NCBI GenBank assembly: GCA_963783885.1
Contig: CAWAPJ010000019.1
Span: forward strand, 19,824-83,823
Origin: Waddliaceae bacterium
GTDB lineage: Bacteria; Chlamydiota; Chlamydiia; Chlamydiales; SLFE01
DNA: 64,000 nt
Direction of reading: 5' to 3'
The position numbers and the translations under genes are program-made. Below, in pieces: positions 11,484 to 49,512 of this stretch; the stretch's first letter is position 1, and each line of letters opens with the position of its first letter. A model generated the notes under the pieces. That model did not search any database. It saw only the letters and a program-made list of their open reading frames with translations, and was not told the DNA's origin.

Positions 11484-13195
11484 GAATCACTTTTTGCTTA
11501 TCTGTTTGGTTTGGGTTGTCTGCCAGCGATGAGTGGGTCTTGAAACGGGTCAAGTCCCATCTTCTGATTGGAGATGTCGACGCGGCCAAAGCGGAAGCAT
11601 CTAATGGAGCGGTTCAATACCCTGCGTCCCGAAAAGTCAAGGAACTGGAAATCGAAACGTTGGCAAAGGCGGGGGACGAAAAGAGGATGATGGCCTGCTG
11701 GAGGGACTATGTCCGGCAATACCCTGACGCTTTTGAAAAGACCGATCTGCTCGAAAGCATGGCTTGGGGAGTGATCGACAAAGGGTTTTGGGCGGCGTCG
11801 CCCATTACCAGAGCCGTCGCGCTTGTTGCCGCGAACCTCTCCGGCTCCGTGAAAGGGATCAAGCTTCTGGAAAAAGGGATTCAAGACACCAATTCCGCTG
11901 TCAGAGGTCTCGCGCTTGAACTTTCGATGAAAAATCGCGACTCCATACTCCAGGATCGGGTTCTCGAGGTCCTTGAAAAAGATAGAGCCTGGAATGCCAG
12001 AATGGCTGCCCTCAAGGCGGCAGGCGGGATGCGAATCCAAAGGGCTCGGGAAGCTTTGCGAAAAATTATCTCCAGCAATCAGTCAACCGATGAAGAGAGG
12101 GCCCTTGCTGTTCAGTCTCTTGTCATGATTCTCGATGCATCCAGCCGCCGCGATATCGCCAGGCTGGCAAAAAGCCGCCGGGTGGGGCTTCGACTTTTAG
12201 CCTGTGAAATTGTTGCAGTCTTCAAGCAGCATGAAGATCTCGATTTGATTGTGCCTCTCTTTTCCGACCACTCGGCTCAAATTCGCAAAGCCGCTTTGCA
12301 GGTGGCGGGAATTTTACGGGATCCGGAAGTCAATGGTAAGGATATATCCCATACCATTTTGCCTATGCTGGGGGATCCCGATAAGGAAGTGGCAATCATT
12401 GCCTCGTGGGTACTCATGCTTCACAAACATCCCGAAGGTCAGAGAGCCATGAGCGTCTTTCTGCGAGACGACTCCAGAGAGATTCGTTGTTTTGCGGCAG
12501 CGGTTTTGAGATCTGCGGGAAAATATGGAAGGCCTCTGATCGAGCGCGCTTTTGAAGAAAGTTTTGATCCCTATGTAAGGCTTAACCTCGCTATCGGCCT
12601 CATCGGCCAGCGCATCCATTGTCCCGAAGCCTGCAGAGAGATTTACCATGAGCTGATGACTAGCGGCGACAGGTGGATGTGGCAGGAGGAGGGGGTTTTT
12701 CGTTCTGTGGCGCCGAGCCTTGTGCGGCATCGTGAAGATATACCGCAATTTCCCGAAGTGGTGAATCAGCTCGTCCGCCTCGAGCTCCTGCAGCTCCTCG
12801 CTTTCATGAAGTATCCCGGAACTGAGAGCGCCATGAAGCAGTTTTTGGAAGAAAGGACCTTTGGAATCACCGGAGTTGTCGCCGCTTTGATGCTTTCCGA
12901 AGGGGAGGAAGAGTCGCTCGATATGATTCGAAAGCTTTTAGACGACCCCGATGAAAAGATACGAGCGCAGGCCGCTTTGATTCTGGCCCTTTGGGGCCGG
13001 GAAGAGAATGTCATCAAAGAGCTCGAAACAATCTACACTTCCGGCACCCGCCACGTGAAAGAAAAAGTATTGGAGGGAATGGGCAGTATCGGGTCGCACC
13101 ACTCGCTCCCTTTTTTAACCGAAAGGCTATCTGAACCCCACCAGCACCTTCGCATGATCGCCGCCGTCGCCATAATCCAATGCGTCAATCATTAG
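11468..13195 (+). CDS. HEAT-repeat (PBS-lyase-type) protein with an N-terminal signal-like segment
   Basis: It has repeated alpha-helical units with D..VR.AA..AL patterns, for example DTNSAVRGLALEL, DHSAQIRKAALQVAG, DPDKEVAIIASWVL and DPDEKIRAQAALILA. Confidence 0.75.
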   Translation: MLLFIRITFCLSVWFGLSASDEWVLKRVKSHLLIGDVDAAKAEASNGAVQYPASRKVKELEIETLAKAGDEKRMMACWRDYVRQYPDAFEKTDLLESMAWGVIDKGFWAASPITRAVALVAANLSGSVKGIKLLEKGIQDTNSAVRGLALELSMKNRDSILQDRVLEVLEKDRAWNARMAALKAAGGMRIQRAREALRKIISSNQSTDEERALAVQSLVMILDASSRRDIARLAKSRRVGLRLLACEIVAVFKQHEDLDLIVPLFSDHSAQIRKAALQVAGILRDPEVNGKDISHTILPMLGDPDKEVAIIASWVLMLHKHPEGQRAMSVFLRDDSREIRCFAAAVLRSAGKYGRPLIERAFEESFDPYVRLNLAIGLIGQRIHCPEACREIYHELMTSGDRWMWQEEGVFRSVAPSLVRHREDIPQFPEVVNQLVRLELLQLLAFMKYPGTESAMKQFLEERTFGITGVVAALMLSEGEEESLDMIRKLLDDPDEKIRAQAALILALWGREENVIKELETIYTSGTRHVKEKVLEGMGSIGSHHSLPFLTERLSEPHQHLRMIAAVAIIQCVNH

Positions 13196-13200
13196 GATCA
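13141..13200. repeat. Direct repeat copy A (3' end of the HEAT gene including its stop); partner at 15497..15553
   Basis: Hand alignment to 15497..15553 gives 52 of 60 positions identical with one 3-nt gap. The two copies translate as HLRMIAAVAIIQCVNH* and HLRMIAAAIIQCVNH*. Confidence 0.8.
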
Positions 13201-13443
13201 ATCAGTCATTCCTGTGAAAAAAATTATTTAATTTAATTATCATAAATTCAAATACTTATATTTGATATGCTCAATTTTCATTAATAGCCTTTCGTAAAGT
13301 GTAAAACGCGGAGACGCAGGGTCGCGGGGTCGCGGATTTTGTTTTTTGTTTTCATCCCTCTCTCCTTAGTCCCCGCGACCCAGCGTCTCCGCGTTAAAAT
13401 TTTTCAAATAATAAATTCACGGGAATGGTTGAGGATCAATCAG
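13194..13443. mobile_element. MITE-like palindromic element (non-coding, about 226 bp between 12-bp direct repeats)
   Basis: AGGATCAATCAG occurs at 13194..13205 and 13432..13443. The terminal inverted repeats are CATTCCTGTGAA (13207..13218) and TTCACGGGAATG (13416..13427). An internal 25-bp inverted repeat lies at 13305..13329 and 13371..13395 and is 24/25 complementary. Confidence 0.45.
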
Positions 13444-13522
13444 CATCTAATCGAGATAACTTTTTCAAAATAATGCTTTGACTAAAATTATGGATAAAAT
13501 ATACATTAATAGTTTATAACTA

Positions 13523-14170
13523 ATGCGAATATTATCCGTTATGGCTAGAAAAAAATCTCAACAGATTCGCGATCAAGCTCTTGAAATATTTCGATTGCAC
13601 GGAGGTGTACTGAAAACTTCAGAAGCGCTTGCATTAGGCATACATCCACGTATTCTCTATGAGCTTAGAGACTTGGGTTATCTGGAACAAATGATGAAAG
13701 GGATCTATGCTCTGCCGGGCTTACCTGGGATTGACCAACCGGACTATGTAGCAATTTCAAAAAAGGTTCCAAAAGGTGTCATTTGTTTAATATCTGCTCT
13801 TTATTTTCATGAACTGACAGTGCAGATTCCTCGATGGGTAGATGTTGCCATTCGACAGTCTTATCATCCCCCTGAAATTTCATATCCTCCAGTTCAATTT
13901 CATTGGTTTTCGAGTAAGGTTTTTGAAACTGGAGTTGAATGCCACGATATGCATGGTATAAAAGTTAAAATCTATTCACAGGAAAAATCCATTGTAGACT
14001 GCTTTCGGCTGCGCGGAAAAGTGGGTGTTGATGTCGCAGTAGAAGCGCTCAAAGTTTACTGGAGGAAGGAGAAGGCTGACATGGCTTTGCTTGAGAACCT
14101 CGCTAAAGAATCACGAGTGCTTAAGATCATGACTCCCTACATAGAGAGTATTATTCATGACCAGTCCTAA
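13523..14170 (+). CDS. abiEi: AbiEi-family antitoxin / transcriptional regulator (type IV TA system)
   Basis: The N-terminal AbiEi-like wHTH reads IRDQALEIFRLHGGVLKTSEALALGIHPRILYELRDLGYLEQMMKGIYALPG. It overlaps the downstream AbiEii gene by 14 nt. Confidence 0.8.
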   Translation: MRILSVMARKKSQQIRDQALEIFRLHGGVLKTSEALALGIHPRILYELRDLGYLEQMMKGIYALPGLPGIDQPDYVAISKKVPKGVICLISALYFHELTVQIPRWVDVAIRQSYHPPEISYPPVQFHWFSSKVFETGVECHDMHGIKVKIYSQEKSIVDCFRLRGKVGVDVAVEALKVYWRKEKADMALLENLAKESRVLKIMTPYIESIIHDQS

Positions 14171-15410
14171 AGCCGTAAACATCGCAGCATCTATAAAAGG
14201 TCGCCTGCTAAATTTAGCTCGGACAACAAATCGACCATATCAGGAACTGCTGCAATATTTTGGGATGGAGCGTTTTCTTTACCGACTTAGTCGAAGCTCT
14301 CACTCTAAACGTTTTATTCTAAAAGGAGCTTTACTCTTCCATGTATGGAAAATTCAGGAGTCCAGAGCAACCAGAGATATTGATGTGTTGGCAATGGCAG
14401 ATAATTCTAAAGAGAATATAGAAAGTCTTATTAGGGATATTTGTGATCTCGAAGTTGATTGCTTAGATGGAATCGTCTTTGACTCAAATTCATTATCAAT
14501 CAAAATCATGCAAAATCAAAGGGAATATGAAGGTATTCGTGTGTGTTTTCAAGGATATTTAGAGAATACGAAAATTTCCATGCAGCTAGATATAGGATTT
14601 GGAGATAGGATAACCCCCGCACCCGTAGAGATCACTTATCCGACTTTATTGGATTTACCCATGCCCAAGCTCTGTGGTTATCCTGTTGAGACTGTCATTG
14701 CAGAAAAACTTCATACCATGGTGGAGAAGGGGATGCTCAACAGTCGCGTCAAGGATTATCACGATGTTTGGGTTTTGTTAAGACAAGGCCATTATGATGG
14801 AGAGGTGTTAGAACGAGCTGTGGAGAGAACCTTCAGTCAAAGGGGTATCAAGTTCGAAAGGACAGAGTTGTTTCAGATAATTAAGCGTTATGGTTTTGCC
14901 CCCGACCGTCAATCACTTTGGGATCAGTATATCCGAAAAGGAGCATATATGTCTGTTTCTCGAAATCTGAGTCAGGTTTGTGCCGATATATCCACTACGC
15001 TTCAATTTCTACTTGCAGAATCAATGAAATCTCCTGTTTCAAATAAAATCGGAATTATCCTTGGCCAGCGAAATTTGAAAGGAAGAAACCTGTTAGAGAA
15101 AGTGAATCAGTTAATCATATCGGGTGCAGATGTAAACGACACATCAAATAATGGTCATCTTCCACTGAATATTGCGATTAGTCGAGGGTGTAGGGAGGTG
15201 GCATTTCTCTTGCTTGAGGCCGGAGCAGATTTTCAAGTTCAGGACAATTCAGGTCTGAATGCTTTTGAATTGGCTTTGAATTGCGCTAGGTATGATGTGG
15301 CTTATGATATTTATAAGCGGGGTTTTCCTTATCAGCCAAGACATTTCAATCAGCGACTAAAGATATCTCACCAAAACCAATATGAGTTTGATTTACGTTA
15401 TTTTTCTTAG
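14157..15410 (+). CDS. abiEii: AbiEii/AbiGii-family nucleotidyltransferase toxin (DUF1814) fused to C-terminal ankyrin repeats
   Basis: The N-terminus is typical of AbiEii: SIKGRLLNLARTTNRPYQELLQYFGMERFLYRLSRSSHSKRFILKGALL...TRDIDVL. Residues about 308-388 form ANK repeats (GADVNDTSNNGHLPLNIAISRGCREVAFLLLEAGADFQVQDNSGLNAFELAL). Confidence 0.8.
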   Translation: MTSPKAVNIAASIKGRLLNLARTTNRPYQELLQYFGMERFLYRLSRSSHSKRFILKGALLFHVWKIQESRATRDIDVLAMADNSKENIESLIRDICDLEVDCLDGIVFDSNSLSIKIMQNQREYEGIRVCFQGYLENTKISMQLDIGFGDRITPAPVEITYPTLLDLPMPKLCGYPVETVIAEKLHTMVEKGMLNSRVKDYHDVWVLLRQGHYDGEVLERAVERTFSQRGIKFERTELFQIIKRYGFAPDRQSLWDQYIRKGAYMSVSRNLSQVCADISTTLQFLLAESMKSPVSNKIGIILGQRNLKGRNLLEKVNQLIISGADVNDTSNNGHLPLNIAISRGCREVAFLLLEAGADFQVQDNSGLNAFELALNCARYDVAYDIYKRGFPYQPRHFNQRLKISHQNQYEFDLRYFS

Positions 15411-15473
15411 AACTGAATGAGGGCTTTTTTAGCAAACCTTGAATGGAACGGCAAATATTAAGCCTATCGATTT

Positions 15474-16328
15474 CTAACCGATAGGCTTGAGTTCTACTAG
15501 CATCTTCGGATGATCGCCGCCGCCATTATCCAATGCGTCAATCATTAGAATCACCTCATTAATCACATCTTCGTCGAAAAGGTAAGACTGATGGCCGACA
15601 TCGGAATAGAGGCGAAAGTGAATCAGATCGTCAGGAGTTTTATAAAAGGCGTTTTGGTACGGTTTGATCACCTCGTCGACAATGCTTCCAAAACAATAGT
15701 ATTCGGTTTTAGGGTTGTAGGTCATATGGGCGGTCAATTTTTGTAAGAAGGGACTTCGGTAGCTCATCTGTCTTGAAGCCTTGCCGAAACCGAGGTGGGC
15801 AAGGCGCGTCCCCTGAAGCGGCGCCCCGATCGTGATGACAGCTTTGACCGTCCCCTCATCGGCATAGTGCTGTGTGCAGTAAGCGGCTACGATCCCTCCC
15901 ATGGAATGTCCGATCAGGATGACTTGGCTTTGTCCTGTCTGCTCGAGAATATAGCGGATAACCGAGGCGATCTCTTTTGCCGAATAGCGGATATCCCCGG
16001 AGGAGTTGGTTAGCCTGGGAACGTAAACAGGGCCGAGGCCGACCTCTTGCAGAGCATTGCGGAACGGTTTCCATCCTGAAATATCGTGCATGTAGCCGTG
16101 AATCAAAATAATGGGAATTTCTCCTTCCATGTCGGTAGGAAATTCCGAATGTTGATCTATCGGGTCAAAGTAGCGATGTGTCCAGCATTTGATAATCGAG
16201 GGAATGTCATGACTGAGTTCACTGACGACTTTCTGAAAATAAGGAGCAGAATTTCCCTCAGTCGAAAAAGCCAGGAGAATTACAAACAAGGCAATGTATC
16301 GAGAATACCCAGACACCCAATCACCCAA
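15474..16328 (-). CDS. Alpha/beta-hydrolase, lipase-like (secreted; signal or TM segment at the N-terminus)
   Basis: It has the nucleophile elbow LIGHSMGG, IPIILIHGYMHD upstream, and the hydrophobic N-terminus YIALFVILLAFSTEG. Confidence 0.75.
   Translation of the reverse strand: MGDWVSGYSRYIALFVILLAFSTEGNSAPYFQKVVSELSHDIPSIIKCWTHRYFDPIDQHSEFPTDMEGEIPIILIHGYMHDISGWKPFRNALQEVGLGPVYVPRLTNSSGDIRYSAKEIASVIRYILEQTGQSQVILIGHSMGGIVAAYCTQHYADEGTVKAVITIGAPLQGTRLAHLGFGKASRQMSYRSPFLQKLTAHMTYNPKTEYYCFGSIVDEVIKPYQNAFYKTPDDLIHFRLYSDVGHQSYLFDEDVINEVILMIDALDNGGGDHPKMLVELKPIG
15497..15553. repeat. Direct repeat copy B; also encodes the C-terminus of the minus-strand lipase-like gene
   Basis: See 13141..13200. 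The minus strand here reads ...VILMIDALDNGGGDHPKML as part of ORF 15474..16328. Confidence 0.8.
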
Positions 16329-17125
16329 TATTTGACCTCTTGACTGAATAATAGGCAGAGATGTCCCTTTCCCTCAATTTTTTTCTGATGAGGGTAGTCC
16401 TCACCGAATGGAAAAGAAGAGGTCCGGGGAGTGATCAGCGGGTCTTTTATCGCGCCGGCAAAGTAATACTTAACGCGTTGATTATTCTTCATTTGGGTTA
16501 CAAGCTGGCTTAAGAATTCGGAGTCTGGCCTCATCTGTTGTATCGATTTGACAAATCCGAATGTGTGGGCAACCTCTGTTCCCTCAAACGGGCTTCCGAG
16601 CGCGACGACATTCTTGACGGTGAATTTCTTTGATTGATAATTCTCTGCTAAACAGGCCGCGACCAGCCCGCCCATTGAGTGGGCGACAAGATTAATCTCA
16701 ATAGTCTGATTGTAAAGGGTATAACAATCTTTTATTTTTCTTTTCACTTCTCGAGCCGATTTTTCAATATCTTGAAGCGAATTTGAGATATTGACCCTGA
16801 GGATGCTGCTTTTCGGTTTAAAATGTCTGTCATAATCCTTAAATGCGGTTTCATTGTGCAAAAAACCGTGGATGAAGACAGTGAGGACTTTCTTATTGGT
16901 TGGATGAAAATAATCGCCACCCGTTCCCAGAAGCAGCCTCTTAATAGAGCGCCATGTGCATCTGGCTAAATGGACTTCGGTTTTGAAAAATTGGATGAGA
17001 ATAGAGATGATTTGCTGTATTTTTTTTACAACGCGCAAACTCTTATGACCAATGTTTTTAAGAGTTTCTTTCCCCTGGTGGGAGATGCCCTGGAAAAAAA
17101 GTTTCGTCTCAAATTTGACAGCCAT
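16280..17125 (-). CDS. Alpha/beta-hydrolase, lipase-like (paralog 2)
   Basis: It shows LTVFIHGFLHNETAF and LVAHSMGGLVAA, and is clearly paralogous to 17161..17922. Confidence 0.75.
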   Translation of the reverse strand: MAVKFETKLFFQGISHQGKETLKNIGHKSLRVVKKIQQIISILIQFFKTEVHLARCTWRSIKRLLLGTGGDYFHPTNKKVLTVFIHGFLHNETAFKDYDRHFKPKSSILRVNISNSLQDIEKSAREVKRKIKDCYTLYNQTIEINLVAHSMGGLVAACLAENYQSKKFTVKNVVALGSPFEGTEVAHTFGFVKSIQQMRPDSEFLSQLVTQMKNNQRVKYYFAGAIKDPLITPRTSSFPFGEDYPHQKKIEGKGHLCLLFSQEVKYWVIGCLGILDTLPCL

Positions 17126-17160
17126 AGATAGCTGTCATTATAAGACAAAATGTTTTTTTG

Positions 17161-17922
17161 CTAAACTTGCAGAATGCCGAGAGATTGCATAACCCAGCTT
17201 TCGATCTCTTCGCTGTATAGAAGGTCCCCATGGCCGATTCCCTCGAACTTCTTCTGATGAATATAAAGATCTCCGAATGGAAAAGATGAGTTTAAGGGGT
17301 CGATGACGGGATCCGCCTCCGAACCGGCAAAATGGTAGTTGATCTCTTTATAGTTTTTCATGCTTTCGACTAGACCCTTAAGGAAAGGGGAGCCGGGCTT
17401 CATTTGCTGCACGGCTTTTCCGAAAGTGAAGTATTTTGCGATGCTGGTACCTTGAAACGGGCTTCCGATAGCCACGACATTTCTTACAGGGAAATCTGCC
17501 CACTCGGCCACTGCCGCCGCGATAAGACCTCCCAGCGAATGTCCGACCAGATGCACTTCAGCAGGATCTTCGGAATAGCGCTTGATTTTTCCGGCTACTT
17601 CCCTTGCCGATATTTCAATATCCTGAAATGAATTGGAGATGTTGACCCTCAGAATGCTGCTTTTTGAGTGAAGCAAAGGGTCGTATCTATGAAAGGCTGT
17701 TTCATTGTGCATGAGTCCGTGGATGAAGACAGTCAGCCTATTCGTGCTGCTCTGATAATAGTAGTCCCCGCTAGTTCCTTTGATTATTCTCTCAAGACTG
17801 CGGCGTGAGCTTTTCACAAGATTGGTTTCGGTATTGAGAAACCGGGAGATCATAGTCATCAGCTGCTGGAGGTCGCCGACAAATTTCCGATTCGATGGCC
17901 TTTCTTGTGCTTGAATGCTCAT
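17161..17922 (-). CDS. Alpha/beta-hydrolase, lipase-like (paralog 3)
   Basis: It shows LTVFIHGLMHNETAF and LVGHSLGGLIAA. SSILRVNISNSFQDIEISAREV aligns with SSILRVNISNSLQDIEKSAREV in paralog 2. Confidence 0.75.
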   Translation of the reverse strand: MSIQAQERPSNRKFVGDLQQLMTMISRFLNTETNLVKSSRRSLERIIKGTSGDYYYQSSTNRLTVFIHGLMHNETAFHRYDPLLHSKSSILRVNISNSFQDIEISAREVAGKIKRYSEDPAEVHLVGHSLGGLIAAAVAEWADFPVRNVVAIGSPFQGTSIAKYFTFGKAVQQMKPGSPFLKGLVESMKNYKEINYHFAGSEADPVIDPLNSSFPFGDLYIHQKKFEGIGHGDLLYSEEIESWVMQSLGILQV

Positions 17923-17987: not shown

Positions 17988-18662
17988 TTAGTAGGTATAT
18001 TTGCCTGTTTTAATAGTTATATGGGAATTATCGCATTCCTTTTCTATATGTTTGTATATATTCAGATCTTTAACTTTATCTTCTTGAATGTCATTGTTAT
18101 CTGGATATTCAATTATAACTTCTTTTAAAACTTCAAACTTGTCATTGATATCATTGATTAATTGTTGATCGTAATCTTCAGTTTCTGATTCTTCATTATT
18201 ATAGAGATCATAAGAAATTCTTATTTTTATGGTGTTTGTTTCTTTTTCCCATCGATATATAAAAGAATCGGTAGTATCATCCAGAAGAGTGCCTGAATTC
18301 ACTTTCCTGATTAATGCATTTGCTTCTTTTTTGCTTAAGGATAAATCTTTATTATTAATCGTAACCCGGATAGATTTTTTTAACAGGGGGGTAAAGGAAA
18401 ATATTTTTCCTATTAAGACACGCAAAAATTTAGGGACCAATTTACTATTTTTACTATATACATAAGTAGAACCCAGGAGTCGGGAATATTCTTTATGTGC
18501 TGTAATGTCTAAATCTGCATCAAATGGAAGAAATATGTTCTGGACTGCTTTGTCTATTTTTTTCTGCCAGCTTTTCTGTTTTTTTGAATTGCTCTCAAGC
18601 AGGCTTCTATTATGAGTAATCAAATTGATGCTGTTTGTTAATTTTGAATTATCAATTTTCAT
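17988..18662 (-). CDS. Hypothetical protein, member of a local two-gene paralog family
   Basis: MKIDNSKLTNSINLITHNRSLLESNSKK...VPKFLRVLIGKIFSFTPLLKKSIRVTINNKDLSLSKKEANALIRKV aligns with the N-terminal half of 18844..19602. The segment is AT-rich. Confidence 0.6.
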   Translation of the reverse strand: MKIDNSKLTNSINLITHNRSLLESNSKKQKSWQKKIDKAVQNIFLPFDADLDITAHKEYSRLLGSTYVYSKNSKLVPKFLRVLIGKIFSFTPLLKKSIRVTINNKDLSLSKKEANALIRKVNSGTLLDDTTDSFIYRWEKETNTIKIRISYDLYNNEESETEDYDQQLINDINDKFEVLKEVIIEYPDNNDIQEDKVKDLNIYKHIEKECDNSHITIKTGKYTY

Positions 18663-18705
18663 ATTATTACCTCTTATTTGTTAAGTAATAATTTTACTAT
18701 TCTTA

Positions 18706-18724
18706 TGTTAAGATTGTATAAATT
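18706..18724 (-). promoter_or_regulatory. Conserved upstream box (-10-like) of paralog 17988..18662
   Basis: The minus strand reads AATTTATACAATCTTAACA, 44-62 nt upstream of the ATG. A near-identical box lies at the same distance upstream of the other paralog. Confidence 0.35.
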
Positions 18725-18754
18725 CTCAGTTAGTTTAGTGTAAATCTCTGAAAT

Positions 18755-18789
18755 GGGGCAAAAACGGGGTTTTGGGGCTTTTGAAGGGG
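18755..18789 (+). other. G-quadruplex-type motif (four GGGG runs)
   Basis: The sequence is GGGGcaaaaacGGGGttttGGGGcttttgaaGGGG, with loops of 7, 4 and 8 nt, in an otherwise AT-rich intergenic region. Confidence 0.3.
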
Positions 18790-18843
18790 CTAGTCCGCTT
18801 CTCTGCTCCGGTTGTCCCCTTCTAATGAAGTAAAAATCTCGGG

Positions 18844-19602
18844 TTATAGGGAAAAATGGAAACGTTTCCGAGGTTCCTTTTTTGCAGGAACTTTTATTTC
18901 AATGTTTATATTGTGGTCTTTGCATGTCTCTACTACATGGTTGTAGAATCGTAAATTTCCTCTATTTCTGATTTCACAATCTCCGAGATCTTCGCATTTA
19001 ATTATAATTTTTTCTAGGCTTTCTAAATTTTTCGAAATATCTTCTATTGGATGTTGATCATAATTTTCATCAGTAGGCTCACAAAGTATAACTAGGTCGT
19101 CTGAAATATTTATTGTCATTATTGTATTTTCATCGTTCATTTCAAATTTAATATATTCGATCTGAATATTTTTGCTAACTCCAAGATCTTTATTGGTTGG
19201 TGGTTTGGGCAAATTGTTATGTTGAGAATGATCATTTGTATTAAGTTCATAAGTTTTTTTAACTAATGACATTGCTTCTTTTTTGCTTAACAAGATGTGC
19301 TCATCGTTAATCGTAATATCAAAAGATTTTTTTAGCAAAAATATGGCAGAAAATATTTTTCCCATTGCAACGCGGAAAATTTTAGGGATAATTTTGCTAT
19401 CTCTACTCCAACGATAACTGAATGCCAGGGGTCTGGAATATTTTTTCTCAACTTCAATTTTAGGGTCAGTAGGAAGATTTGATCCTTCAAGGACGTCATT
19501 AATTTTTTTCTGCCAGTTTTTTTGCGAATTATTCTTAAGCAGGTTTCTATTTTGCAGAATATTATTTAAACTCTGTTGTAATGTTTTACTATCTATCTTC
19601 AT
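18844..19602 (-). CDS. Hypothetical protein, paralog of 17988..18662
   Basis: It reads MKIDSKTLQQSLNNILQNRNLLKNNSQK...IPKIFRVAMGKIFSAIFLLKKSFDITINDEHILLSKKEAMSLVKKT. Confidence 0.6.
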   Translation of the reverse strand: MKIDSKTLQQSLNNILQNRNLLKNNSQKNWQKKINDVLEGSNLPTDPKIEVEKKYSRPLAFSYRWSRDSKIIPKIFRVAMGKIFSAIFLLKKSFDITINDEHILLSKKEAMSLVKKTYELNTNDHSQHNNLPKPPTNKDLGVSKNIQIEYIKFEMNDENTIMTINISDDLVILCEPTDENYDQHPIEDISKNLESLEKIIIKCEDLGDCEIRNRGNLRFYNHVVETCKDHNINIEIKVPAKKEPRKRFHFSL

Positions 19603-35521: not shown

Positions 35522-37021
35522 ATGCACATCATCCACGCAGCTTCTGAACTCGCCCCGATTGCCAAGATAGGCGGGCTCGGCGATGTTCTGCTCGGCCTGT
35601 CCCGCCAGCTTGCCTGGGAGGGGCATGATGTCGATATCATCCTTCCCAAATACGACTGCATGGATACCGAAAAGATCCGCGACCTGCATATCGACGAGTC
35701 TGACATTTTAGTCGAATATGATGGGCAGGTGCACCCGAATACCATTTGGCTGGGGTGGGTCGACAATCTCAAAGTCTATTTTATCGAGCCCCACCACCCC
35801 AAGCTCTTCTTTAATCGAGGCTGCATTTATGGATGCGACGACGACATCGAACGCTACATTTACTTTTCCAAAGCTTCCATGGAGCTGATGAAACAGCGAG
35901 GCCTTAAGCCTCATCTTCTCCATTTGCACGATTGGCATACAGCCCTTATGGCCCCTCTTTACAAAGACATGTATCGGGAGCTCGGAAAGAACGGACTTAA
36001 ACTTGTTTTTACGATCCATAATATGGAGTACCAGGGAAAATGTCTGACACTTGATATTGATAAAACGGGGCTTAAAGGAGAGGATTATGCCGATCCCAAA
36101 AAGCTTCTCGATGAAACAGATTCAACCCATCTCAATCTAATGAAGGGGGGTATTGTCTATTCTGAAGCGGTCACAACCGTCTCTTGTACCTATGCCAAAG
36201 AAATACAAACGCAAAAAGGTGGAAAAGGGCTCGGTAAACTTCTAAAAAAATACAAAAGCAAAGTTTATGGAATCGTCAACGGCGTCGAATACGCCTATTG
36301 GAACCCCGAAACAGACCCTTACCTTCCCGCTCACTTTTCTTCCAGGGAAAAACCGAAAACCGATAACGACTTGGCGACGATTGACCGGAAAGCGTATGTC
36401 AAGAATCTGCTGAGAGAGAAGCTTATGCTTGACGAAGCGCATCGTCCTTTAGTCGGCTGCGTCGCCCGCCTTGTTCCCCAAAAAGGGGTAGAGCTGATGC
36501 GCCACGCCCTCTTCCGTACATTGGAAAGGGGAGGGCAATTCATTCTTCTGGGAACCAGTCCTATCCCTAAAATCAATCGCGAATTTCACGAGCTGATGCA
36601 TCATTTCGCCGATCATCCCCACGCCCACCTGATTCTGAAGCACGAAGAAGAGACGGCGCATCATATTTTCGCCGCCAGCGATATGTTTATTGTTCCTTCA
36701 ATATTCGAACCCTGCGGCCTCACTCAGTTGATATCCCTTAAATATGGTACCGTTCCCATTGTTAGAAAAACAGGAGGGCTGGCCGATACGATCGTTGATG
36801 TCGACAACGGGAGGGTTCTTTTTGAGAAAAGAAACGGCTTTGTCTTTGAAAAGCCCACGCCCGAGGGGTTCAACTCAGCTTTGGACCGGGCCATCGCCTA
36901 TTGGTTTGACAAGCCGCTAATGTGGCGGAAACTCATGCTAAACGGCATGGCTATGGACTTCAGCTGGAAGGGCCCCGCCAAGCAGTATCTCGACCTTTAT
37001 GAGAAGATTCGGATGAAGTAG
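35522..37021 (+). CDS. glgA: Glycogen synthase (ADP-glucose type)
   Basis: The N-terminus is MHIIHAASELAPIAKIGGLGDV, the C-terminal region has EPCGLTQL, and the length is 499 aa. Confidence 0.92.
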   Translation: MHIIHAASELAPIAKIGGLGDVLLGLSRQLAWEGHDVDIILPKYDCMDTEKIRDLHIDESDILVEYDGQVHPNTIWLGWVDNLKVYFIEPHHPKLFFNRGCIYGCDDDIERYIYFSKASMELMKQRGLKPHLLHLHDWHTALMAPLYKDMYRELGKNGLKLVFTIHNMEYQGKCLTLDIDKTGLKGEDYADPKKLLDETDSTHLNLMKGGIVYSEAVTTVSCTYAKEIQTQKGGKGLGKLLKKYKSKVYGIVNGVEYAYWNPETDPYLPAHFSSREKPKTDNDLATIDRKAYVKNLLREKLMLDEAHRPLVGCVARLVPQKGVELMRHALFRTLERGGQFILLGTSPIPKINREFHELMHHFADHPHAHLILKHEEETAHHIFAASDMFIVPSIFEPCGLTQLISLKYGTVPIVRKTGGLADTIVDVDNGRVLFEKRNGFVFEKPTPEGFNSALDRAIAYWFDKPLMWRKLMLNGMAMDFSWKGPAKQYLDLYEKIRMK

Positions 37022-37061
37022 CAGAAGTGTGGATGTTAGACATCATTTGACTTAACAAAAA

Positions 37062-37271
37062 ATGATTAGGAGGACCCAAAATATGATTTCAGAATTTTAT
37101 ACCGTGACCTCATCTAATGATAAATGGAATTTGGAATATAAGATTATTCCAAAGATTACAAGGGATTCTCGTAATTGCACGATAGAAACAATGAAACTAA
37201 GTGCATGGTCAAATCTTAAAAAAGCAGAAAAATATGCAAAAAAAGGCAGCAAAACAACTGGGAGTCCCTAA
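37062..37271 (+). CDS. Small ORF, possibly the displaced 5' part of the next gene
   Basis: This 69-aa ORF ends 25 nt after an A7 run (37238..37244). The next ORF is open in the +1 frame across the same run. Confidence 0.3.
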   Translation: MIRRTQNMISEFYTVTSSNDKWNLEYKIIPKITRDSRNCTIETMKLSAWSNLKKAEKYAKKGSKTTGSP

Positions 37272-38121
37272 TCTGAGAAACGTAAATGATATTATTGTGA
37301 TCGCTCCTTGTGAGGATGGATATTTTTCCAGGAAGGTAATTGTTTCAGGAGACGATCAAGGAACTGTAAAAAAAGTAGAAAAGCAGACCAGGCTGCTTGG
37401 GAAAAAGCTTATAGATCACTGGAAAATTGTTAATGAACGCTCTTGCGAATATATTCAAGCTTTGGCGTTTTCAAAGAGTGACTTAGAGGAGATTAATAAC
37501 TTTATTCAGAAGAAAAGTGAAATGGAAGGATTTCTGGATCTTAAAATCAAAGGAAAGAAATTTTCTCTGTTTGTATTCGAAACGGATGCTAGCCCTTACG
37601 AGGGTGAATGGACTTATACTATACAAGTCCTTTGCCAAAATGATCCCTCTCTCAACGAATGTCAGGGAGAAGGGCCGATGTTCATCACGTCGGTTAAGGG
37701 TAAATGGCATAAACAAGTTTTGAAAAAGCTCAATGTCAGTATCAAGGAGAAATTACACAATGAAATCAACTCAATCTATAGTCAACCGTCAAAGATATGG
37801 GAGCTAGTCAAGCAACATTCCAACGAATATATTCAAGCTTTGAAGCTTTTTAAAAGTGACTTAAAAACGATCGAAGACTTTATTCAAGAAACGGAAGGAA
37901 GAAAAGGGTTTCTGGATCTTGAAATCGAAGGAAAAGAATTTTCTCTGTTAACAAACCGCATATGTGCTGTTTCTTACGGTGATGACTGGACCGATATTGT
38001 GCAAGTCGTTTGTCAAAATGATCCCTCGCTCAACACACAAATAGGAATGGGAGCGAGGCACCTCACAGTGATTCCGGATGAGTGGCATCAGAAAGTTTTA
38101 AAAAAAATAAAAGAGTCGTAA
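37234..38121 (+). CDS. Hypothetical protein made of two tandem ~110-aa repeats
   Basis: Unit 1 (about 37411..37732) and unit 2 (about 37792..38121) align at both protein and nucleotide level: EYIQAL..KSDL..I..FIQ......GFLDL.I.GK.FSL ... VCQNDPSLN ... WH.KVLKK. Confidence 0.55.
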   Translation: MQKKAAKQLGVPNLRNVNDIIVIAPCEDGYFSRKVIVSGDDQGTVKKVEKQTRLLGKKLIDHWKIVNERSCEYIQALAFSKSDLEEINNFIQKKSEMEGFLDLKIKGKKFSLFVFETDASPYEGEWTYTIQVLCQNDPSLNECQGEGPMFITSVKGKWHKQVLKKLNVSIKEKLHNEINSIYSQPSKIWELVKQHSNEYIQALKLFKSDLKTIEDFIQETEGRKGFLDLEIEGKEFSLLTNRICAVSYGDDWTDIVQVVCQNDPSLNTQIGMGARHLTVIPDEWHQKVLKKIKES

Positions 38122-38128
38122 AGGGCTT

Positions 38129-38179
38129 CTTGTATGGCGCCTTCTAATGCTGAGCGGCATGGCTATGGACGTTAGCTGA
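38129..38179 (+). pseudogene. Remnant copy of the glgA 3' region
   Basis: It translates as LVWRLLMLSGMAMDVS*, against glgA 36917..36967 LMWRKLMLNGMAMDFSW. It contains the exact 16-mer CGGCATGGCTATGGAC. Confidence 0.6.
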
Positions 38180-38180
38180 G

Positions 38181-38307
38181 GTTTAGGTAGCAATCAGGGT
38201 CTAAGCCTCGATTATCGGCAAGGGATTACCCTTGCCTTCAAATCGAGTCTACGCATCTGAATCCAACGAAAGACTTTAACAACAAGTTTAGGTAGCAATC
38301 AGGGTCT
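38181..38307. repeat. Repeat-family copy 1: 22-bp GTTTAGGTAGCAATCAGGGTCT at both ends in direct orientation, with a central hairpin
   Basis: The 22-mer lies at 38181..38202 and 38286..38307. The centre holds the GGCAAGGG-ATTA-CCCTTGCC hairpin with an extended stem CTCGATT/AATCGAG. Positions 38201..38307 are identical to 47921..48027. Confidence 0.85.
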
Positions 38308-38348
38308 TAGATCTTCTGGCGTCTTATATAAAGCAATTCGCAAGACCT

Positions 38349-38690
38349 GTGGTAGCTATGAATTTTTTGGAAGTTTTAGAGTGTCTCCCCAAGAGATTTC
38401 TTGATGAAATCAATAATGACTTTGTTAAACTCTTTTCAAAAGAATACTATAGCACCACAGTAACCACCTGTATCGTTGATGCTTCGGAAATTCAACGAAT
38501 TCCTATAATCAATTCTCTGATTAGCTTAACAAAAGAGGATACCGATTGGCCTTTAATTACACTTGTAATAGATGCTCATGTTAAGATATCCGGAGACAAA
38601 AGAAGCGAGGTAATTCACTCTTTTGTTGAAGCTCTAAAGGCGAATCGAGATATTCGGGTTAAGGCATTCAGCCAGTTTTTTTGTATCTAA
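38349..38690 (+). CDS. Hypothetical protein (orphan)
   Basis: This 113-aa ORF lies in an AT-rich islet and has no motif. Confidence 0.35.
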   Translation: MVAMNFLEVLECLPKRFLDEINNDFVKLFSKEYYSTTVTTCIVDASEIQRIPIINSLISLTKEDTDWPLITLVIDAHVKISGDKRSEVIHSFVEALKANRDIRVKAFSQFFCI

Positions 38691-38696
38691 TGGATT

Positions 38697-38897
38697 ATGA
38701 GAGCCCAAGTAATGGAAATCGCGGCTCCTTATTTAAAAACCTGTAAAAAAATTGAAGTCGATACAATTTATTGGATCGCTTCTAGACTAATAGATATGAA
38801 TGAAGCGAAAAGAAAACCTGCTTTTCAAGGACTCTTACACGATGAAAAATTGGCTGATGATAAAACAACAATAAAAATGCTTTCGGATTATCTTTAA
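38697..38897 (+). CDS. Hypothetical protein (orphan)
   Basis: This 66-aa ORF starts 6 nt after the previous ORF and may be part of the same decayed gene. Confidence 0.3.
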   Translation: MRAQVMEIAAPYLKTCKKIEVDTIYWIASRLIDMNEAKRKPAFQGLLHDEKLADDKTTIKMLSDYL

Positions 38898-39036
38898 AGA
38901 TTTTTCTCCTTAGATTTTTTGTCAACAATTGCCCTTTTTAATAACATTATTGGCATCTTCAAACGTAATTTTCCGAATCAGACTCGAATTATTTTCGTCA
39001 AAATTTTTACCTTAACCTGTTAGTCTTGGCACAGAA

Positions 39037-39064
39037 TTTGTTTACAAAAACCGTTGTAAACAAA
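39037..39064. promoter_or_regulatory. 10-bp inverted repeat abutting the Shine-Dalgarno of the 747-aa gene
   Basis: The sequence is TTTGTTTACA-aaaaccgt-TGTAAACAAA, followed immediately by GGAG and the ATG at 39075. Confidence 0.25.
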
Positions 39065-39074
39065 GGAGTTCAAG

Positions 39075-41318
39075 ATGGGTCCGTTGAATGTTAATCGAGT
39101 AGAATCTTTCCCATTCCTCCAAAAACGGAAAGTTAAGGGGACTCATATTGCCTTAAAGGCCCTTCAGCATAGCAGGAGCGACCCGACATTGAGCCCTCAG
39201 AGAGTGAAAGTTCTGACTCCAAAGGATTATACAAGAATCCCCTCACCCTATAGAAAAGCTAAACCTCCTGAATCGGAGGCAGTTAAAAGAGCCAAAAAAG
39301 ATGCTGCTGCAAATGGCTGGTTAATCTCGGCGCGGATTCAAGATTATGGGATCGACAATCAAAAGGACTTAGTAGACATTGCGAAAATCGCCGCGCGGCA
39401 AGATGGCGGAGGTGTGTCGGCCTATATTGAAAATTATGGAATAACTAGCGAAGACGATCGAATCGAGATAGCATTGCTCGCCGCCATGCACAACGGGATT
39501 GCCGATGCCGACGAGGAAAGTACTGTCTCGGCTTTTATTGGAAACTATCGGATAAAGAATCAAAAAGGTCTTGTCAAGATAGCTATGGCCGCCGCCAAAC
39601 ATAATGGTCTGAGAACCGCTCAGCATTTTCGAAATTATAGAATCAAAGATTCTAATGATCGAGAAATAATATTTCGCGAGACATTGAAAAATAATTCCAA
39701 CGCCATTAGATTCGCGAACCAGTTCGATCTTGAGCTAAAGACACTTGCCAAGATCTCTTCGGATCTGCTGAAAAAACATCCTTTGTTGGCGTCGCTTGTT
39801 TTTGATACGTTCAACAACAAACCTGTTATGCTGCTCAAAATTCAGGCCGAGCTGTATAAAAACTTCCCTCGGCTGGCCAAACAGCTCAGCCAGAAAAAAT
39901 CGATGATTTCAGAGGAAGCTTTAAGAAATTTTTCACTAAAAGATACTTTATCAATACTCGACAACCGTGATTTTTCAAAAAGAGAGTTCAAAAACTTGAT
40001 GGCAGTAATCGATAAAGTTAAAGAGTCGCAAAATCCTCATGAAAATACACTTTGGTTGATAACCGCTTTAATAACTCTTGATAAACTCGATCACAGTATT
40101 TTGAAATATCTTTTGAAAAAAAATGTTCTATTGAAAATGGCTGATCTTAAGCCTCGGTCATATAGGAGTATGCTTGTCGATGATATCGCGATGTTTTCCA
40201 ATGCAAATAAGGAATGGCTAAGCATTTATCAAGATCTCAATCGAAAGAGTGGGAGAGGGATCCATCGGCTCATACCCAATCTCTACCTGGCCCATTTTTT
40301 ATGTCAGGGATTTGACAAAGAGGCTGTTGAAGATTTGGCAATTTCCATTGGTAAAAACAACCATTTAAGAAAACATAAATTTCAAAGTGTCTTTTATCCT
40401 TTTTTTCACAAGCTAATGAACAATCAAACTCTCCACACATTTGACCGGGAATATATTCTAAACCTACTGTTCGTCGAAGAGGAGTCAATTAAACAGAATG
40501 TCTATATTCTCGATATCATCTTATCTCATGGCGAGGGAAGCATGCTGACTTCAGATCTCGCTAAAACCAACGGCAATTTTAGCAAGTTGCTGAATCGGTT
40601 TTTCCAAAGCGAGGGGAAGGTGAAATCATTGAAGCACTTTGCTGACAGGTTCAATGATGTCATAGGTTTCCAAAATGTTTCGGGTAAGGCATTCTTGTCT
40701 CTTTGGGTATCTCTTAGCGACCTGCCGGAGGCCCGAAGAGTCCAAGCCTTTCATCAGCTTGGGTTGTATTTGGATGGAGCCTTGTGTCGAAAAACACAAA
40801 AGGTGCGGAAGAAAAATACTCTTCATAAGATCAAAAATATGTCTCAATGGGAGCAACCTTTGCCGAGAGGCATCAGCGGAGATCTGACCGCATTGGAAAC
40901 CGATAAGTCAAAAACCATGCTTGAAGGGCTTGCATTCATGAGTAGTTTGGATCGGGTCGAAGTGAATGAAGCCTTGCTTTCAGTTCTCACGGATGCAAAA
41001 AACCGCATGATTGTCGTTAAAGATAAAAAAGGGCAGATTCAAGGAGCTGCTGTCATGAAGCTTCTTTTTGAGAAAAAATCACAAAAACCTTTGATTTTTT
41101 TAGATAAGATCTATCCGGTCCGTCCTAGCAGAGGAATTTCTGAAATGATCCTCGAGACGGCCAAGAAAAAAAGCAATATTATGGGATTTGACCTTTACCA
41201 AAAATCCGAGGGACGTAAAACCGATGCTCCGACACTCCTCTCTTTAGGATCCGCATCCTATTCGGAATACTGCGACGGAGCAGGCGGAATCATAAAATGG
41301 AGGCTCTTATACAATTGA
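39075..41318 (+). CDS. Large repeat-containing hypothetical protein (effector candidate)
   Basis: The protein is 747 aa. The N-terminal region (about 39336..39675) has 3-4 copies of a ~36-aa unit: I.(D/N)YGI....D...IA..AA...G.... There is no enzymatic motif I can name. Confidence 0.6.
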   Translation: MGPLNVNRVESFPFLQKRKVKGTHIALKALQHSRSDPTLSPQRVKVLTPKDYTRIPSPYRKAKPPESEAVKRAKKDAAANGWLISARIQDYGIDNQKDLVDIAKIAARQDGGGVSAYIENYGITSEDDRIEIALLAAMHNGIADADEESTVSAFIGNYRIKNQKGLVKIAMAAAKHNGLRTAQHFRNYRIKDSNDREIIFRETLKNNSNAIRFANQFDLELKTLAKISSDLLKKHPLLASLVFDTFNNKPVMLLKIQAELYKNFPRLAKQLSQKKSMISEEALRNFSLKDTLSILDNRDFSKREFKNLMAVIDKVKESQNPHENTLWLITALITLDKLDHSILKYLLKKNVLLKMADLKPRSYRSMLVDDIAMFSNANKEWLSIYQDLNRKSGRGIHRLIPNLYLAHFLCQGFDKEAVEDLAISIGKNNHLRKHKFQSVFYPFFHKLMNNQTLHTFDREYILNLLFVEEESIKQNVYILDIILSHGEGSMLTSDLAKTNGNFSKLLNRFFQSEGKVKSLKHFADRFNDVIGFQNVSGKAFLSLWVSLSDLPEARRVQAFHQLGLYLDGALCRKTQKVRKKNTLHKIKNMSQWEQPLPRGISGDLTALETDKSKTMLEGLAFMSSLDRVEVNEALLSVLTDAKNRMIVVKDKKGQIQGAAVMKLLFEKKSQKPLIFLDKIYPVRPSRGISEMILETAKKKSNIMGFDLYQKSEGRKTDAPTLLSLGSASYSEYCDGAGGIIKWRLLYN

Positions 41319-41396
41319 ACACGCACAGGAAATATAAAAGTTCAATATTGTTCAAAAGAATTAAGTGTGTTAGATTCTTCTCAAGAAAGTGGGAGA

Positions 41397-41999
41397 ATGC
41401 TTTTGACTATTGCCAATTGGCTGACAATTCTAAGATTATTAATCAGCCCCTTTTTTTTATTGATTTACGTCTATCCGAAGACATTTTACGTCTCAGAGGC
41501 GTCTCTTCCCTTCGTTCTTCTTGCCTTATTTTTATTTTTTGAGCTTTCCGACGCATTCGACGGATTTATTGCAAGAAAGTATGAACAGGTGACGGAATTG
41601 GGAAAGCTGCTCGATCCGATGGCCGACAGCATTACGAGGACATCGGCTTTTTTAACCTTCACGCTAGGACCGGTGCAGCTTCCGATAGTGATCGTTTTTA
41701 TTTTTATCTATCGCGACACCATGGTCGGGACGCTCAGGACTATCTGCGCTCTAAAGGGATTTGCCCTTGCCGCCAGAGTTAGCGGCAAAATCAAGGCCAT
41801 CATTCAGGCGATTGCCATCTTTGTCATCATAGCGATGATGATCTTCCATTCTTTAGGGGGGATTTCGCAGCAAACGCTTCAATTTGCCGCCTCCTTGGCA
41901 GGGTGGATTGCCGCCCTATATGCGGTATATTCCGGAATAGAATACTTTACTGTAAACCGCAGCTACATCGCTCGAATGCTGCATAGCAGCCCGCGATAG
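41397..41999 (+). CDS. pgsA: CDP-alcohol phosphatidyltransferase (phosphatidylglycerophosphate synthase-like)
   Basis: It carries the signature D(x)2DG(x)2AR...G(x)3D(x)3D as SDAFDGFIARKYEQVTELGKLLDPMADS, and is multi-TM. Confidence 0.85.
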   Translation: MLLTIANWLTILRLLISPFFLLIYVYPKTFYVSEASLPFVLLALFLFFELSDAFDGFIARKYEQVTELGKLLDPMADSITRTSAFLTFTLGPVQLPIVIVFIFIYRDTMVGTLRTICALKGFALAARVSGKIKAIIQAIAIFVIIAMMIFHSLGGISQQTLQFAASLAGWIAALYAVYSGIEYFTVNRSYIARMLHSSPR

Positions 42000-47864: not shown

Positions 47865-47920
47865 CTTTTTTAGAGATTTTAAAGAATCTAAGTATGAGTT
47901 AAAACGAAAATCCGCATCTG

Positions 47921-48027
47921 CTAAGCCTCGATTATCGGCAAGGGATTACCCTTGCCTTCAAATCGAGTCTACGCATCTGAATCCAACGAAAGACTTTAAC
48001 AACAAGTTTAGGTAGCAATCAGGGTCT
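47921..48027. repeat. Repeat-family copy 2 (107 bp identical to 38201..38307)
   Basis: CTAAGCCTCGATTATCGGCAAGGGATTACCCTTGCCTTCAAATCGAGTCTACGCATCTGAATCCAACGAAAGACTTTAACAACAAGTTTAGGTAGCAATCAGGGTCT is identical at both loci by eye. Confidence 0.9.
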
Positions 48028-48122
48028 AGTAATACCTTGAATGATCATAATAATTTTCGGAAACGCATGCGGGAACAATTTATAATCAAATTTTTTTTTA
48101 GATTGCGCTGAAGCGGAAGCGA

Positions 48123-49046: not shown

Positions 49047-49088
49047 ACGAGTGGACAGCTTTACTTTTCGCCTCTTTCGCCGACCTTT

Positions 49089-49247
49089 GGCCCTGATTGC
49101 TACCTAAACCTCAGCTAGAGCTTACACGAGTACACCATCTACTGCCTGTAGCGACTTGGCAAGGGATTACCCTTGCCGTCGACGCTACAGTTGTATCTGG
49201 CGCACTCGTGTAAGCTCTAGCTGAGGTTTAGGTAGCAATCAGGGTCT
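49089..49247. repeat. Repeat-family copy 3: 159-bp near-perfect palindrome
   Basis: The left arm 49091..49131 is the exact reverse complement of the right arm 49204..49244, and includes the 22-mer terminus. The centre holds CTGTAGCG..GGCAAGGG-ATTA-CCCTTGCC..CGCTACAG. Confidence 0.9.
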
Positions 49248-49440
49248 TTGCCATTCGACTTAAAATTCCCTGCTCTTATAGAAAATGTGAATTAGCGTCG
49301 ATTGGCAAATCATAAGCAAAAAAAGCTCAAAAATCGGTTTTTCCTGAGTTTTGCAATTCCCTCTAAACGATTCAGCTTGCAAATAAATAGCCTACACATT
49401 AATATTTCATCTTTAAATGCCTAAAAAATGGGCAGCTGAT

Positions 49441-49512
49441 TGGGGTGTAGCCAAGCGGTAAGGCAGCGGTTTTTGGTACCGCCATGCGGAGGTTCGAATC
49501 CTTCCACCCCAA
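49441..49512 (+). tRNA. tRNA-Gln (anticodon UUG)
   Basis: The sequence TGGGGTGTAGCCAAGCGGTAAGGCAGCGGTTTTTGGTACCGCCATGCGGAGGTTCGAATCCTTCCACCCCAA has a U1-A72 acceptor pair, as in E. coli tRNA-Gln. The anticodon stem is GCGGT/ACCGC with loop TT-TTG-GT. Confidence 0.9.

Follow-up and report, generated by a model that had tools for sequence, protein, structure and literature searches.

We present here an analysis of the DNA downstream of glgA, the glycogen synthase gene, in an environmental chlamydia (a Waddliaceae bacterium, assembly GCA_963783885.1, contig CAWAPJ010000019.1), where the whole stretch of 64,000 nucleotides analysed is called the window. The nearest complete relative is the Waddliaceae metagenome-assembled genome (MAG) MFD05684, referred to below as L007. 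After the stop codon of an intact glgA, the locus contains an AT-rich gene, a degenerate copy of the glgA 3' end (the relic), two nested units of a repeat family, a group of older open reading frames (ORFs) and finally pgsA, and the DNA lying between glgA and pgsA is called the islet (Table 1). On the whole, the relic is, judging from its sequence, a genuine and non-functional copy of the glgA 3' end. The feature is of a known kind, namely a displaced gene-tail pseudogene fragment beside a decayed miniature inverted-repeat transposable element (MITE) in an insertion hotspot.

The glgA tail copy

An earlier note on this DNA, made from the sequence alone, had claimed that a degenerate glgA copy lies at 38129 in the same reading frame as its source, with an AT-rich gene between the two. 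All of this holds. Between 36917-36967 and 38129-38179, 38 of 51 positions agree, the exact 16-mer CGGCATGGCTATGGAC included, and the encoded peptides are LMWRKLMLNGMAMDFSW in glgA and LVWRLLMLSGMAMDVS* in the relic. The offset of 1212 nt equals 3 x 404 and is divisible by 3, which leaves the genomic frame the same, and the gene between the copies has a G+C content of 36.9% against 48.8% for glgA. The alignment against shuffled background, which the note had proposed as a check, gives a score of 26 for 36900-37021 against 38120-38185 (z = 13.6), compared with a maximum of 15 in 2000 dinucleotide shuffles (mean 7.7, standard deviation 1.35). One detail had to be corrected. The repeat family was said to begin at 38181, 2 nt after the copy, while the element actually starts at 38173 and overlaps the last 7 nt that had been assigned to the copy, because TAGCTGAG is found immediately before the 19-mer GTTTAGGTAGCAATCAGGG on each arm of the full repeat copy at 49085-49250. 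Without these 7 nt (38173-38179, TAGCTGA) the score is 22 (z = 10.4).

Searches by other means give the same picture. When the terminal 150 nt of glgA are run against both strands of the entire window, blastn returns the relic at E = 1.2e-6 and a next best match at 0.58. In the islet, tblastn with GlgA yields a single match, LMWRKLMLNGMAMDFS against LVWRLLMLSGMAMDVS, with a peptide E of 0.001, and no further glgA pieces at word size 2. A scan of 66 genes for 3'-end duplications leaves just two that are non-paralogous, among them glgA with its score of 26; the background is at most 18-20. By our own calculation, a 64-kb stretch compared with itself should give about one exact 16-mer; the extended match, however, stands at z = 10-14 with the E-values just given, that of blastn being window-wide, and it lies just downstream of its source gene on the same strand. 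Chance similarity is therefore hardly credible. The relic does not continue the frame of the upstream ORF, nor is it contained in any ORF of 40 aa or more. A promoter and terminator scan around it gives nothing above shuffles, and Rfam reports nothing above threshold at the relic and the MITEs, the sole pass being the tRNA gene at 49441-49512. For annotation, we suggest that the relic be entered as a pseudogene fragment and the adjoining repeat as a MITE derived from an insertion sequence (IS).

Table 1. Features of the glgA-pgsA locus and related repeat copies, in window coordinates
Feature	Position	Strand	Remarks
glgA, glycogen synthase, 499 aa	35522..37021	+	intact; Pfam Glyco_transf_5, E = 2.9e-64; C-terminus conserved with orthologues P0002-P0040
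glgA segment copied by the relic	36917..36967	+	codons 466-482
AT-rich cargo	37083..38121	+	36.9% GC; 62-aa ORF 37083-37271, 295-aa ORF 37234-38121
glgA 3'-end relic	38129..38172	+	codons 466-480; 33/44 nt identical
5'-truncated right end, C-type MITE	38173..38200	+	TAGCTGAG, 19-nt terminal repeat GTTTAGGTAGCAATCAGGG, T
A/B-type MITE unit	38201..38310	+	internal CTAAG start, hairpin GGCAAGGGATTACCCTTGCC, second terminal repeat 38286-38304, T
Older islet part, common to L007 (~90%)	38311..41345	+	small ORFs 38349-38897, 747-aa ORF 39075-41318; no family matches
Ancestral spacer remnant and pgsA (CDP-alcohol phosphatidyltransferase)	41346..41999	+	directly after glgA in relatives
Recent recombination tract	33500..37021	.	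at least 99.6% identical to L007 (7978-11501), background 85-94%
MITE copy B, solo A/B-type unit	47915..48032	+	one terminal repeat
MITE copy C, complete palindromic element	49085..49250	.	CTTTG target duplication

The islet in relatives and the repeat element beside the relic

Since five related lineages have glgA next to pgsA, with no intervening gene in four of them, the ancestral order is glgA directly followed by pgsA, and the whole interval 37022-41345 is derived. In L002, with 85% amino acid identity in GlgA, a spacer of 66 nt separates the two genes. In L080 and L081 (GlgA 65%) pgsA comes next in the same orientation and overlaps by 4 nt, in L078 (72%) an inverted pgsA overlaps glgA by 4 nt, and in L003 (75%) a lone sensor-kinase gene separates glgA from an inverted pgsA. 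In the window, 4.3 kb lie between the glgA stop (37021) and the point where homology to L002 restarts (41346). Spacer junctions were compared with 500 shuffles each. When the distal spacer of the window is aligned with that of L002, only 2 of 500 shuffles score as high, and this comparison alone is significant. The pairings of window 37022-37082 with the pgsA-proximal spacer, and of the proximal junction of L007 with L002, do not exceed the shuffles, of which a fraction of 0.06-0.95 attains the observed score. The comparison of synteny downstream of glgA, also proposed beforehand, thus shows the interval as inserted, not ancestral. The glgA-pgsA spacer has been hit several times, independently.

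The sister lineage L007 divides the islet into two layers. It is 85-94% identical to the window across most of 25-45 kb (about 90% overall). At the locus itself, 514 unrelated nt replace window 37022-38304, a filler for which blastn and tblastx find no homologue in the window, and window 38305-41324 is again common to both at 90% identity. Because L007 is without the AT-rich gene, the relic and the MITE nest but shares the remainder, the AT-rich gene, the relic and the two nested IS-derived MITEs were gained in the window lineage only, and 38311-41345 is an older, shared insertion. The 9-mer TTTGACTTA, present at window 37045-37053 and also in the L007 spacer just past the glgA stop, is suggestive only.

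To the left of the islet, the same comparison reveals a tract of 3.5 kb containing part of ykuD, orf387 and all of glgA. Per 250 nt, the window and L007 differ by 0-2 substitutions in the tract and by 13-47 elsewhere, and their third-position divergence is 0.5-0.6% in glgA and orf387 against 13-23% in neighbouring genes. The right edge of the tract is the glgA stop codon, where the two genomes turn non-homologous. The tract is a recent homologous exchange between lineages ~10% apart, ending at the heterology past the glgA stop. The glgA terminus KGPAKQYLDLYEKIRMK is conserved with orthologues and is the same in L007 except for one small substitution or indel difference near 36982. Since it is orthologue-like and near-identical in the cargo-free L007, the present terminus looks native on sequence grounds and not obviously supplied by the insert. 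At that difference (L007 11455-11460, GCCCCGC(TC/C)AAG) the frame is shifted, giving a shortened GlgA of 493 aa with an altered tail in L007; the cause could be either a homopolymer error of long-read sequencing or a true lesion, located in the same C-terminal region.

The possibility of a misassembly across the 107-nt exact repeat was considered and is unlikely, as synteny with L007 and L002 is found on both sides and an independent contig (L001) carries the relic. Its match to the window is 100% through the divergent as well as the identical stretches and stops only at 38202, within the MITE, and this speaks against chimerism in the assembly.

The repeat next to the relic belongs to a family of high copy number. 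The 19-mer occurs 5 times exactly in the window against 0.03 expected, and 63 loci with it (L008-L070) are found in public genomes, almost all in one chlamydial MAG, OFTM232. This MAG contains more than 60 family copies, its contigs typically stopping ~118 nt inside the element, while the L007 genome has 2 exact terminal repeats only. The termini are 20-nt inverted repeats, ACCCTGATTGCTACCTAAAC ... GTTTAGGTAGCAATCAGGGT, and the 5-bp target duplication, present in 3 of 6 complete copies, reads CTGGG, CTTAG or CTTTG (the last in window copy C), with a CTNAG-like preference. Alignment of ~80 copies from four genomes shows non-coding derivatives of 57-507 nt; longer copies (L054, L038) have a 163-aa transposase-like N-terminus after the terminal repeat, which matches Pfam DDE_Tnp_1_3 (PF13612) at E = 0.008, below the cut-off, in contigs that end inside the element. 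No full-length autonomous IS was recovered, the longest shared segments being ~520 nt, where the contigs end. Given the terminal repeats, the target duplication, the copy number and the transposase-like N-terminus, the family is best described as an IS with MITE derivatives and a putative DDE transposase. Window copies A (at the relic) and B and a copy in the L007 assembly (L052) are identical over 106-107 nt, the A/B-type unit of A matching 47921-48027 at 100% over 107 nt; such identity implies, as far as sequence can tell, recent activity or transfer. Copy C has 154 nt between its outer terminal-repeat ends and 52-nt arms that are 92% complementary, and it lies ~190 nt upstream of the tRNA gene at 49441-49512 (Rfam tRNA, 64 bits).

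At the relic, the repeat is a nested, 5'-truncated composite MITE, and the relic is fused to the inner side of the MITE. Both arms of copy C show ...CTCTAGCTGAG ahead of the terminal repeat, and the microhomology AGCTG is shared at the junction between relic and MITE. As the relic is attached to the interior side of a truncated MITE, the two meet at the endpoint of a deletion and not at an insertion site or in a functional abutment; the AGCTG probably marks a later deletion. Solo ends with truncations are frequent among copies of this family. The A/B-type unit is followed by its target CTTAG (38306-38310), and L007 has the empty CTTAG site, ...AGTTCTTAGATC. With its own 5-bp target duplication and this empty site, the MITE arrived independently. 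Two other classes of repeat were tried and rejected: the terminal repeat GTTTAGG / CCTAAAC is unlike the integron attC pattern GTTRRRY / RYYYAAC and the islet has no integrase, and a CRISPR reading fails on motif and spacing.

The position of the relic, on the interior side of a terminal repeat and 8 nt away from it, might suggest that an IS or MITE picked up a glgA fragment and carried it along (transduplication). However, no partner terminal repeat is found upstream of the relic at up to 3 mismatches, glgA-like sequence is present in 0 of about 80 family copies from four genomes, and the source gene of the fragment is only 1.2 kb away, on the strand that the fragment itself occupies. We consider such a capture very improbable.

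No integrase or recombinase is found in the islet, and the ORFs within 37062-41318 have no matches in Pfam, NCBIfam or PADLOC. The 295-aa ORF of the cargo is built of two 126-aa domains in tandem, which share 49% identity. A word-based search with this protein returns only itself, and phmmer against 1.8 billion representatives finds ~80 remote homologues. Most of them are ~135 aa long with a single domain, and their sources are unrelated uncultured bacteria. The protein belongs to an uncharacterised domain family of ~135 aa, in which the motifs HS..Y..AL, VCG..YG..W and SLN..G.GT are conserved. It has no match in Pfam, NCBIfam or PADLOC and no sequence match in the PDB, and an AlphaFold (AF2) model built on the alignment of the homologues, with a pLDDT (predicted local distance difference test) of 95, gives no significant fold match in PDB or BFVD. 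In the older part of the islet, the two small ORFs at 38349-38897 (113 and 66 aa) correspond to one 208-aa ORF in L007 (11999-12625), the break lying at a T-run, where either the gene is split in the window or the sequencing differs. L007 also has an extra 2.7 kb ahead of pgsA (15035-17704), comprising a leucine-rich repeat gene, a PDDEXK_3 gene and an IS5-type DDE transposase, and bracketed by a ~70-nt repeated stretch (…GGTACTGCTTATATACTTAAA(G/A)CTTTAGCTGA(G/A)AAATACCGTATTTTTT…).

The AbiE islet

A second islet in the window was proposed to have the same architecture. About 88 nt at 13117-13204 recur at 15466-15557 and flank AbiEi, AbiEii and a hairpin element (cargo 13205-15465), AbiEi and AbiEii being a toxin-antitoxin cassette in which AbiEii has a C-terminal ankyrin domain. 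In relatives without AbiE, a HEAT gene on the plus strand and an alpha/beta-hydrolase gene on the minus strand converge and overlap, by 81 nt in L071 and 48 nt in L072-L074. The duplicated piece is this overlap, with the HEAT gene terminating in copy 1 and the hydrolase gene in copy 2. As both are coding, they are ~91% identical with an in-frame indel; they are also each other's closest relatives, ~8% different and sharing derived states compared with L071. The retention of both copies is due to selection and has no bearing on a mechanism that regenerates gene ends.

The supposed parallel holds in part. Cargo, a duplicated gene end and relatives lacking the insertion are seen in both islets, but the junction elements are unrelated. 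The statement that neither islet has a recombinase is confirmed, no integrase or recombinase being found in the AbiE islet either. The glgA and AbiE islets have no common core sequence, junction element or recombinase. The comparison supports a similar outcome, namely target duplication flanking cargo, with one mechanism for both not shown.

Around the AbiE genes, an AT-rich segment of 229 nt at 13205-13433 contains a perfect 25-nt-stem hairpin (13305-13395). The segment ends in imperfect inverted repeats (CATTCCTGTGAA / TTCACGGGAATG), with the 11-nt direct repeat GGATCAATCAG on either side, and is possibly another MITE, unrelated to the family beside the relic. Tandem paralogue arrays at 15474-17922 and 17988-19602 comprise three alpha/beta-hydrolase genes and two unannotated genes, the latter of about 225-250 aa and 71-73% identical at the DNA level. 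The region adjoining the AbiE islet is generally expansion-prone.

Origin of the relic and comparison with known systems

The differences between relic and glgA bear on the origin of the relic. There are 13 of them, 8 at third codon positions (P = 0.035), and the third-position divergence of 47% lies in the range seen for the L002 orthologue, which is 85% identical (38-48%), and is unlike the background between window and L007. Lineage-specific GMAMD codons are common to the relic and the resident glgA, while three states are common to the relic and L002 and absent from the resident gene; at codons 469, 470, 473 and 474 the relic has CGC, CTT, CTG and AGC as its diagnostic states. With its third-position excess and orthologue-like divergence, the relic fits a fragment of a diverged functional allele, either a former resident or a donor, rather than a decayed identical copy, so far as the sequence can indicate. 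An internal event would need no foreign allele. The glgA 3' end and spacer would have been duplicated in place, in a short tandem or a long target-site duplication produced by slippage of the replication machinery, a template switch or staggered breaks as the AT-rich gene was inserted, and the downstream copy would then have decayed. The 88-nt target duplication at AbiE, with copies closest to each other, shows that sizeable duplications occur in this genome, and the GMAMD codons common to the relic and the resident gene would be expected as well. However, 25% divergence with a third-position excess is unlike neutral decay of an identical copy, such decay implies an old event and yet L007 is without the relic, and the three states matching L002 are not found in the resident gene. 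We regard the internal route as unlikely.

In our judgment, the best reading, though one at even odds, is that the relic is the scar of homology-anchored or illegitimate recombination in a hypervariable spacer and not the arm of a dedicated integrating element. Under this recombination reading, incoming DNA with an intact glgA end and the AT-rich gene would be anchored by homology in or upstream of glgA, and the second join would be made inside the resident glgA 3' end, either illegitimately or as a single crossover via a short homologous piece. The resident or donor-derived tail would thereby be pushed downstream, behind the AT-rich gene, where the redundant tail would decay, and a deletion into the MITE interior via AGCTG would have removed its last 17 codons, the stop and the DNA beyond. 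Selection for an intact glgA would account for the complete upstream copy. Homologous exchange at this very locus (the tract at 33.5-37.02 kb) counts for recombination. Displaced 3' ends from homology-facilitated illegitimate recombination in naturally transformable bacteria, and arrays of 'orphaned' 3' regions, have been described (PMC5361080, PMC3240628), and homologous recombination and ComEC-dependent DNA uptake in Chlamydia species have been reported as well (PMC8936141, PMC6686042).

Several points weigh against the recombination reading. The direction of the L007 exchange cannot be polarised and the relic may owe its origin to some other event; the tract is essentially undiverged and the relic is 25% diverged. 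The left junction (38122-38129) has no diagnostic microhomology, and with a relic of only 44 nt the codon-position statistics are weak. A search of JGI metagenomes with ATGCTRARCGGCATGGCTATGGAC for the donor allele or other strains gives 0 matches, and this glgA allele is carried by two lineages only. Two independent illegitimate junctions 44 nt apart are something of a coincidence, and DNA uptake in this family is putative, on analogy with Chlamydia species only.

The earlier note had gone further and proposed one recurrent insertion mechanism that regenerates the 3' end of the targeted gene. This is not upheld. Of the composite 4.3-kb islet, only the first 1.1 kb lie between the copies, the sequence after the right copy is a truncated MITE and not displaced native DNA, the glgA terminus is native-looking, the MITE is ordinary and independent, and the AbiE duplication is kept by selection. 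Such a dedicated, recurrent site-specific system would target gene 3' ends, cross over in the 16-nt core and bring in a replacement 3' end, the relic being the displaced copy on the attR (right attachment site) side. The exact core CGGCATGGCTATGGAC inside diverged flanks, the cargo between the copies, the AbiE islet with its cargo and duplicated gene end, and the lack of any third non-paralogous 3'-end duplication in the scan of 66 genes would all agree with such a system. Nevertheless, neither islet has an integrase or recombinase, the repeats bracket 36968-38128 while the insert relative to other lineages is 37022-41345, and what lies to the right of the relic core is MITE. The glgA terminus to the right of the core is orthologue-like and near-identical in L007, which has the same terminus without cargo, though the tract was recently exchanged between both lineages. 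Moreover, the two islets have no common core or junction sequence, and overlapping convergent genes explain the AbiE retention. A site-specific system is thus quite doubtful here. On the whole, no new insertion mechanism is revealed, and a dedicated mechanism regenerating 3' ends is not supported.

A more speculative idea, to which we give little credence, is that environmental chlamydiae contain recombinase-free mobile cassettes, cargo flanked by a duplicated piece of the target gene, for which the AT-rich gene between glgA tails and AbiE between HEAT and hydrolase tails would be examples. If so, host recombination between the repeats would release an excised circle with the cargo and one 'homology arm', and after transfer to another lineage the circle would be integrated by one crossover with the orthologous gene end there, leaving the target intact. 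The duplication would be recreated in this way, and the third-position divergence and the identical crossover core would be explained together.

Among known systems, integrase-mediated islands enter the 3' ends of tRNA, tmRNA and protein genes and carry a replacement 3' end, with duplication of the attachment (att) site. The present locus resembles them in that direct repeats of a gene 3' end flank the cargo and the upstream gene is intact. It differs in having no integrase, in repeats that are 75% identical rather than near-identical, in a right repeat without native downstream sequence, and in repeats that bracket only part of the insert. The repeat units agree with bacterial IS-derived MITEs in their 20-nt terminal inverted repeats, 5-bp target duplication, palindromic non-coding copies, and a copy number high enough to break short-read assemblies. 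They differ in the lack of an assembled full-length copy, in the sub-threshold DDE match and in the nested, 5'-truncated make-up of copy A at the relic.

The remaining comparison is with C-terminal displacement at rhs, contact-dependent inhibition (CDI) and type VI secretion system (T6SS) effector loci (Kirchberger et al. 2017, PMC5361080, with Jackson 2009 and Prudhomme 2002 as cited there; PMC3240628). In common are a conserved gene as the homologous anchor, new DNA downstream with the old 3' end pushed on as a fragment, the lack of a dedicated recombinase, and a hotspot locus with strain-specific content. Unlike in those loci, glgA encodes a housekeeping enzyme and not a polymorphic toxin, and its functional 3' end keeps its domain; there is a single 44-nt relic and no array, no donor is known, and transformation is suggested on analogy only. 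As for the marks of a displacement scar, a glgA fragment lies downstream of new non-homologous DNA, relatives lack both, and homologous exchange, in either direction and perhaps unconnected with the relic, is found in the anchor region. The locus combines a conserved glgA-pgsA pair split by nested insertions, a 3.5-kb tract recently exchanged, active MITEs and a displaced tail. It offers a clean and datable view of the accumulation of accessory DNA in an obligate intracellular lineage, and is further evidence that environmental chlamydiae, here Waddliaceae-like MAGs, recombine both homologously and illegitimately, as Chlamydia species do.

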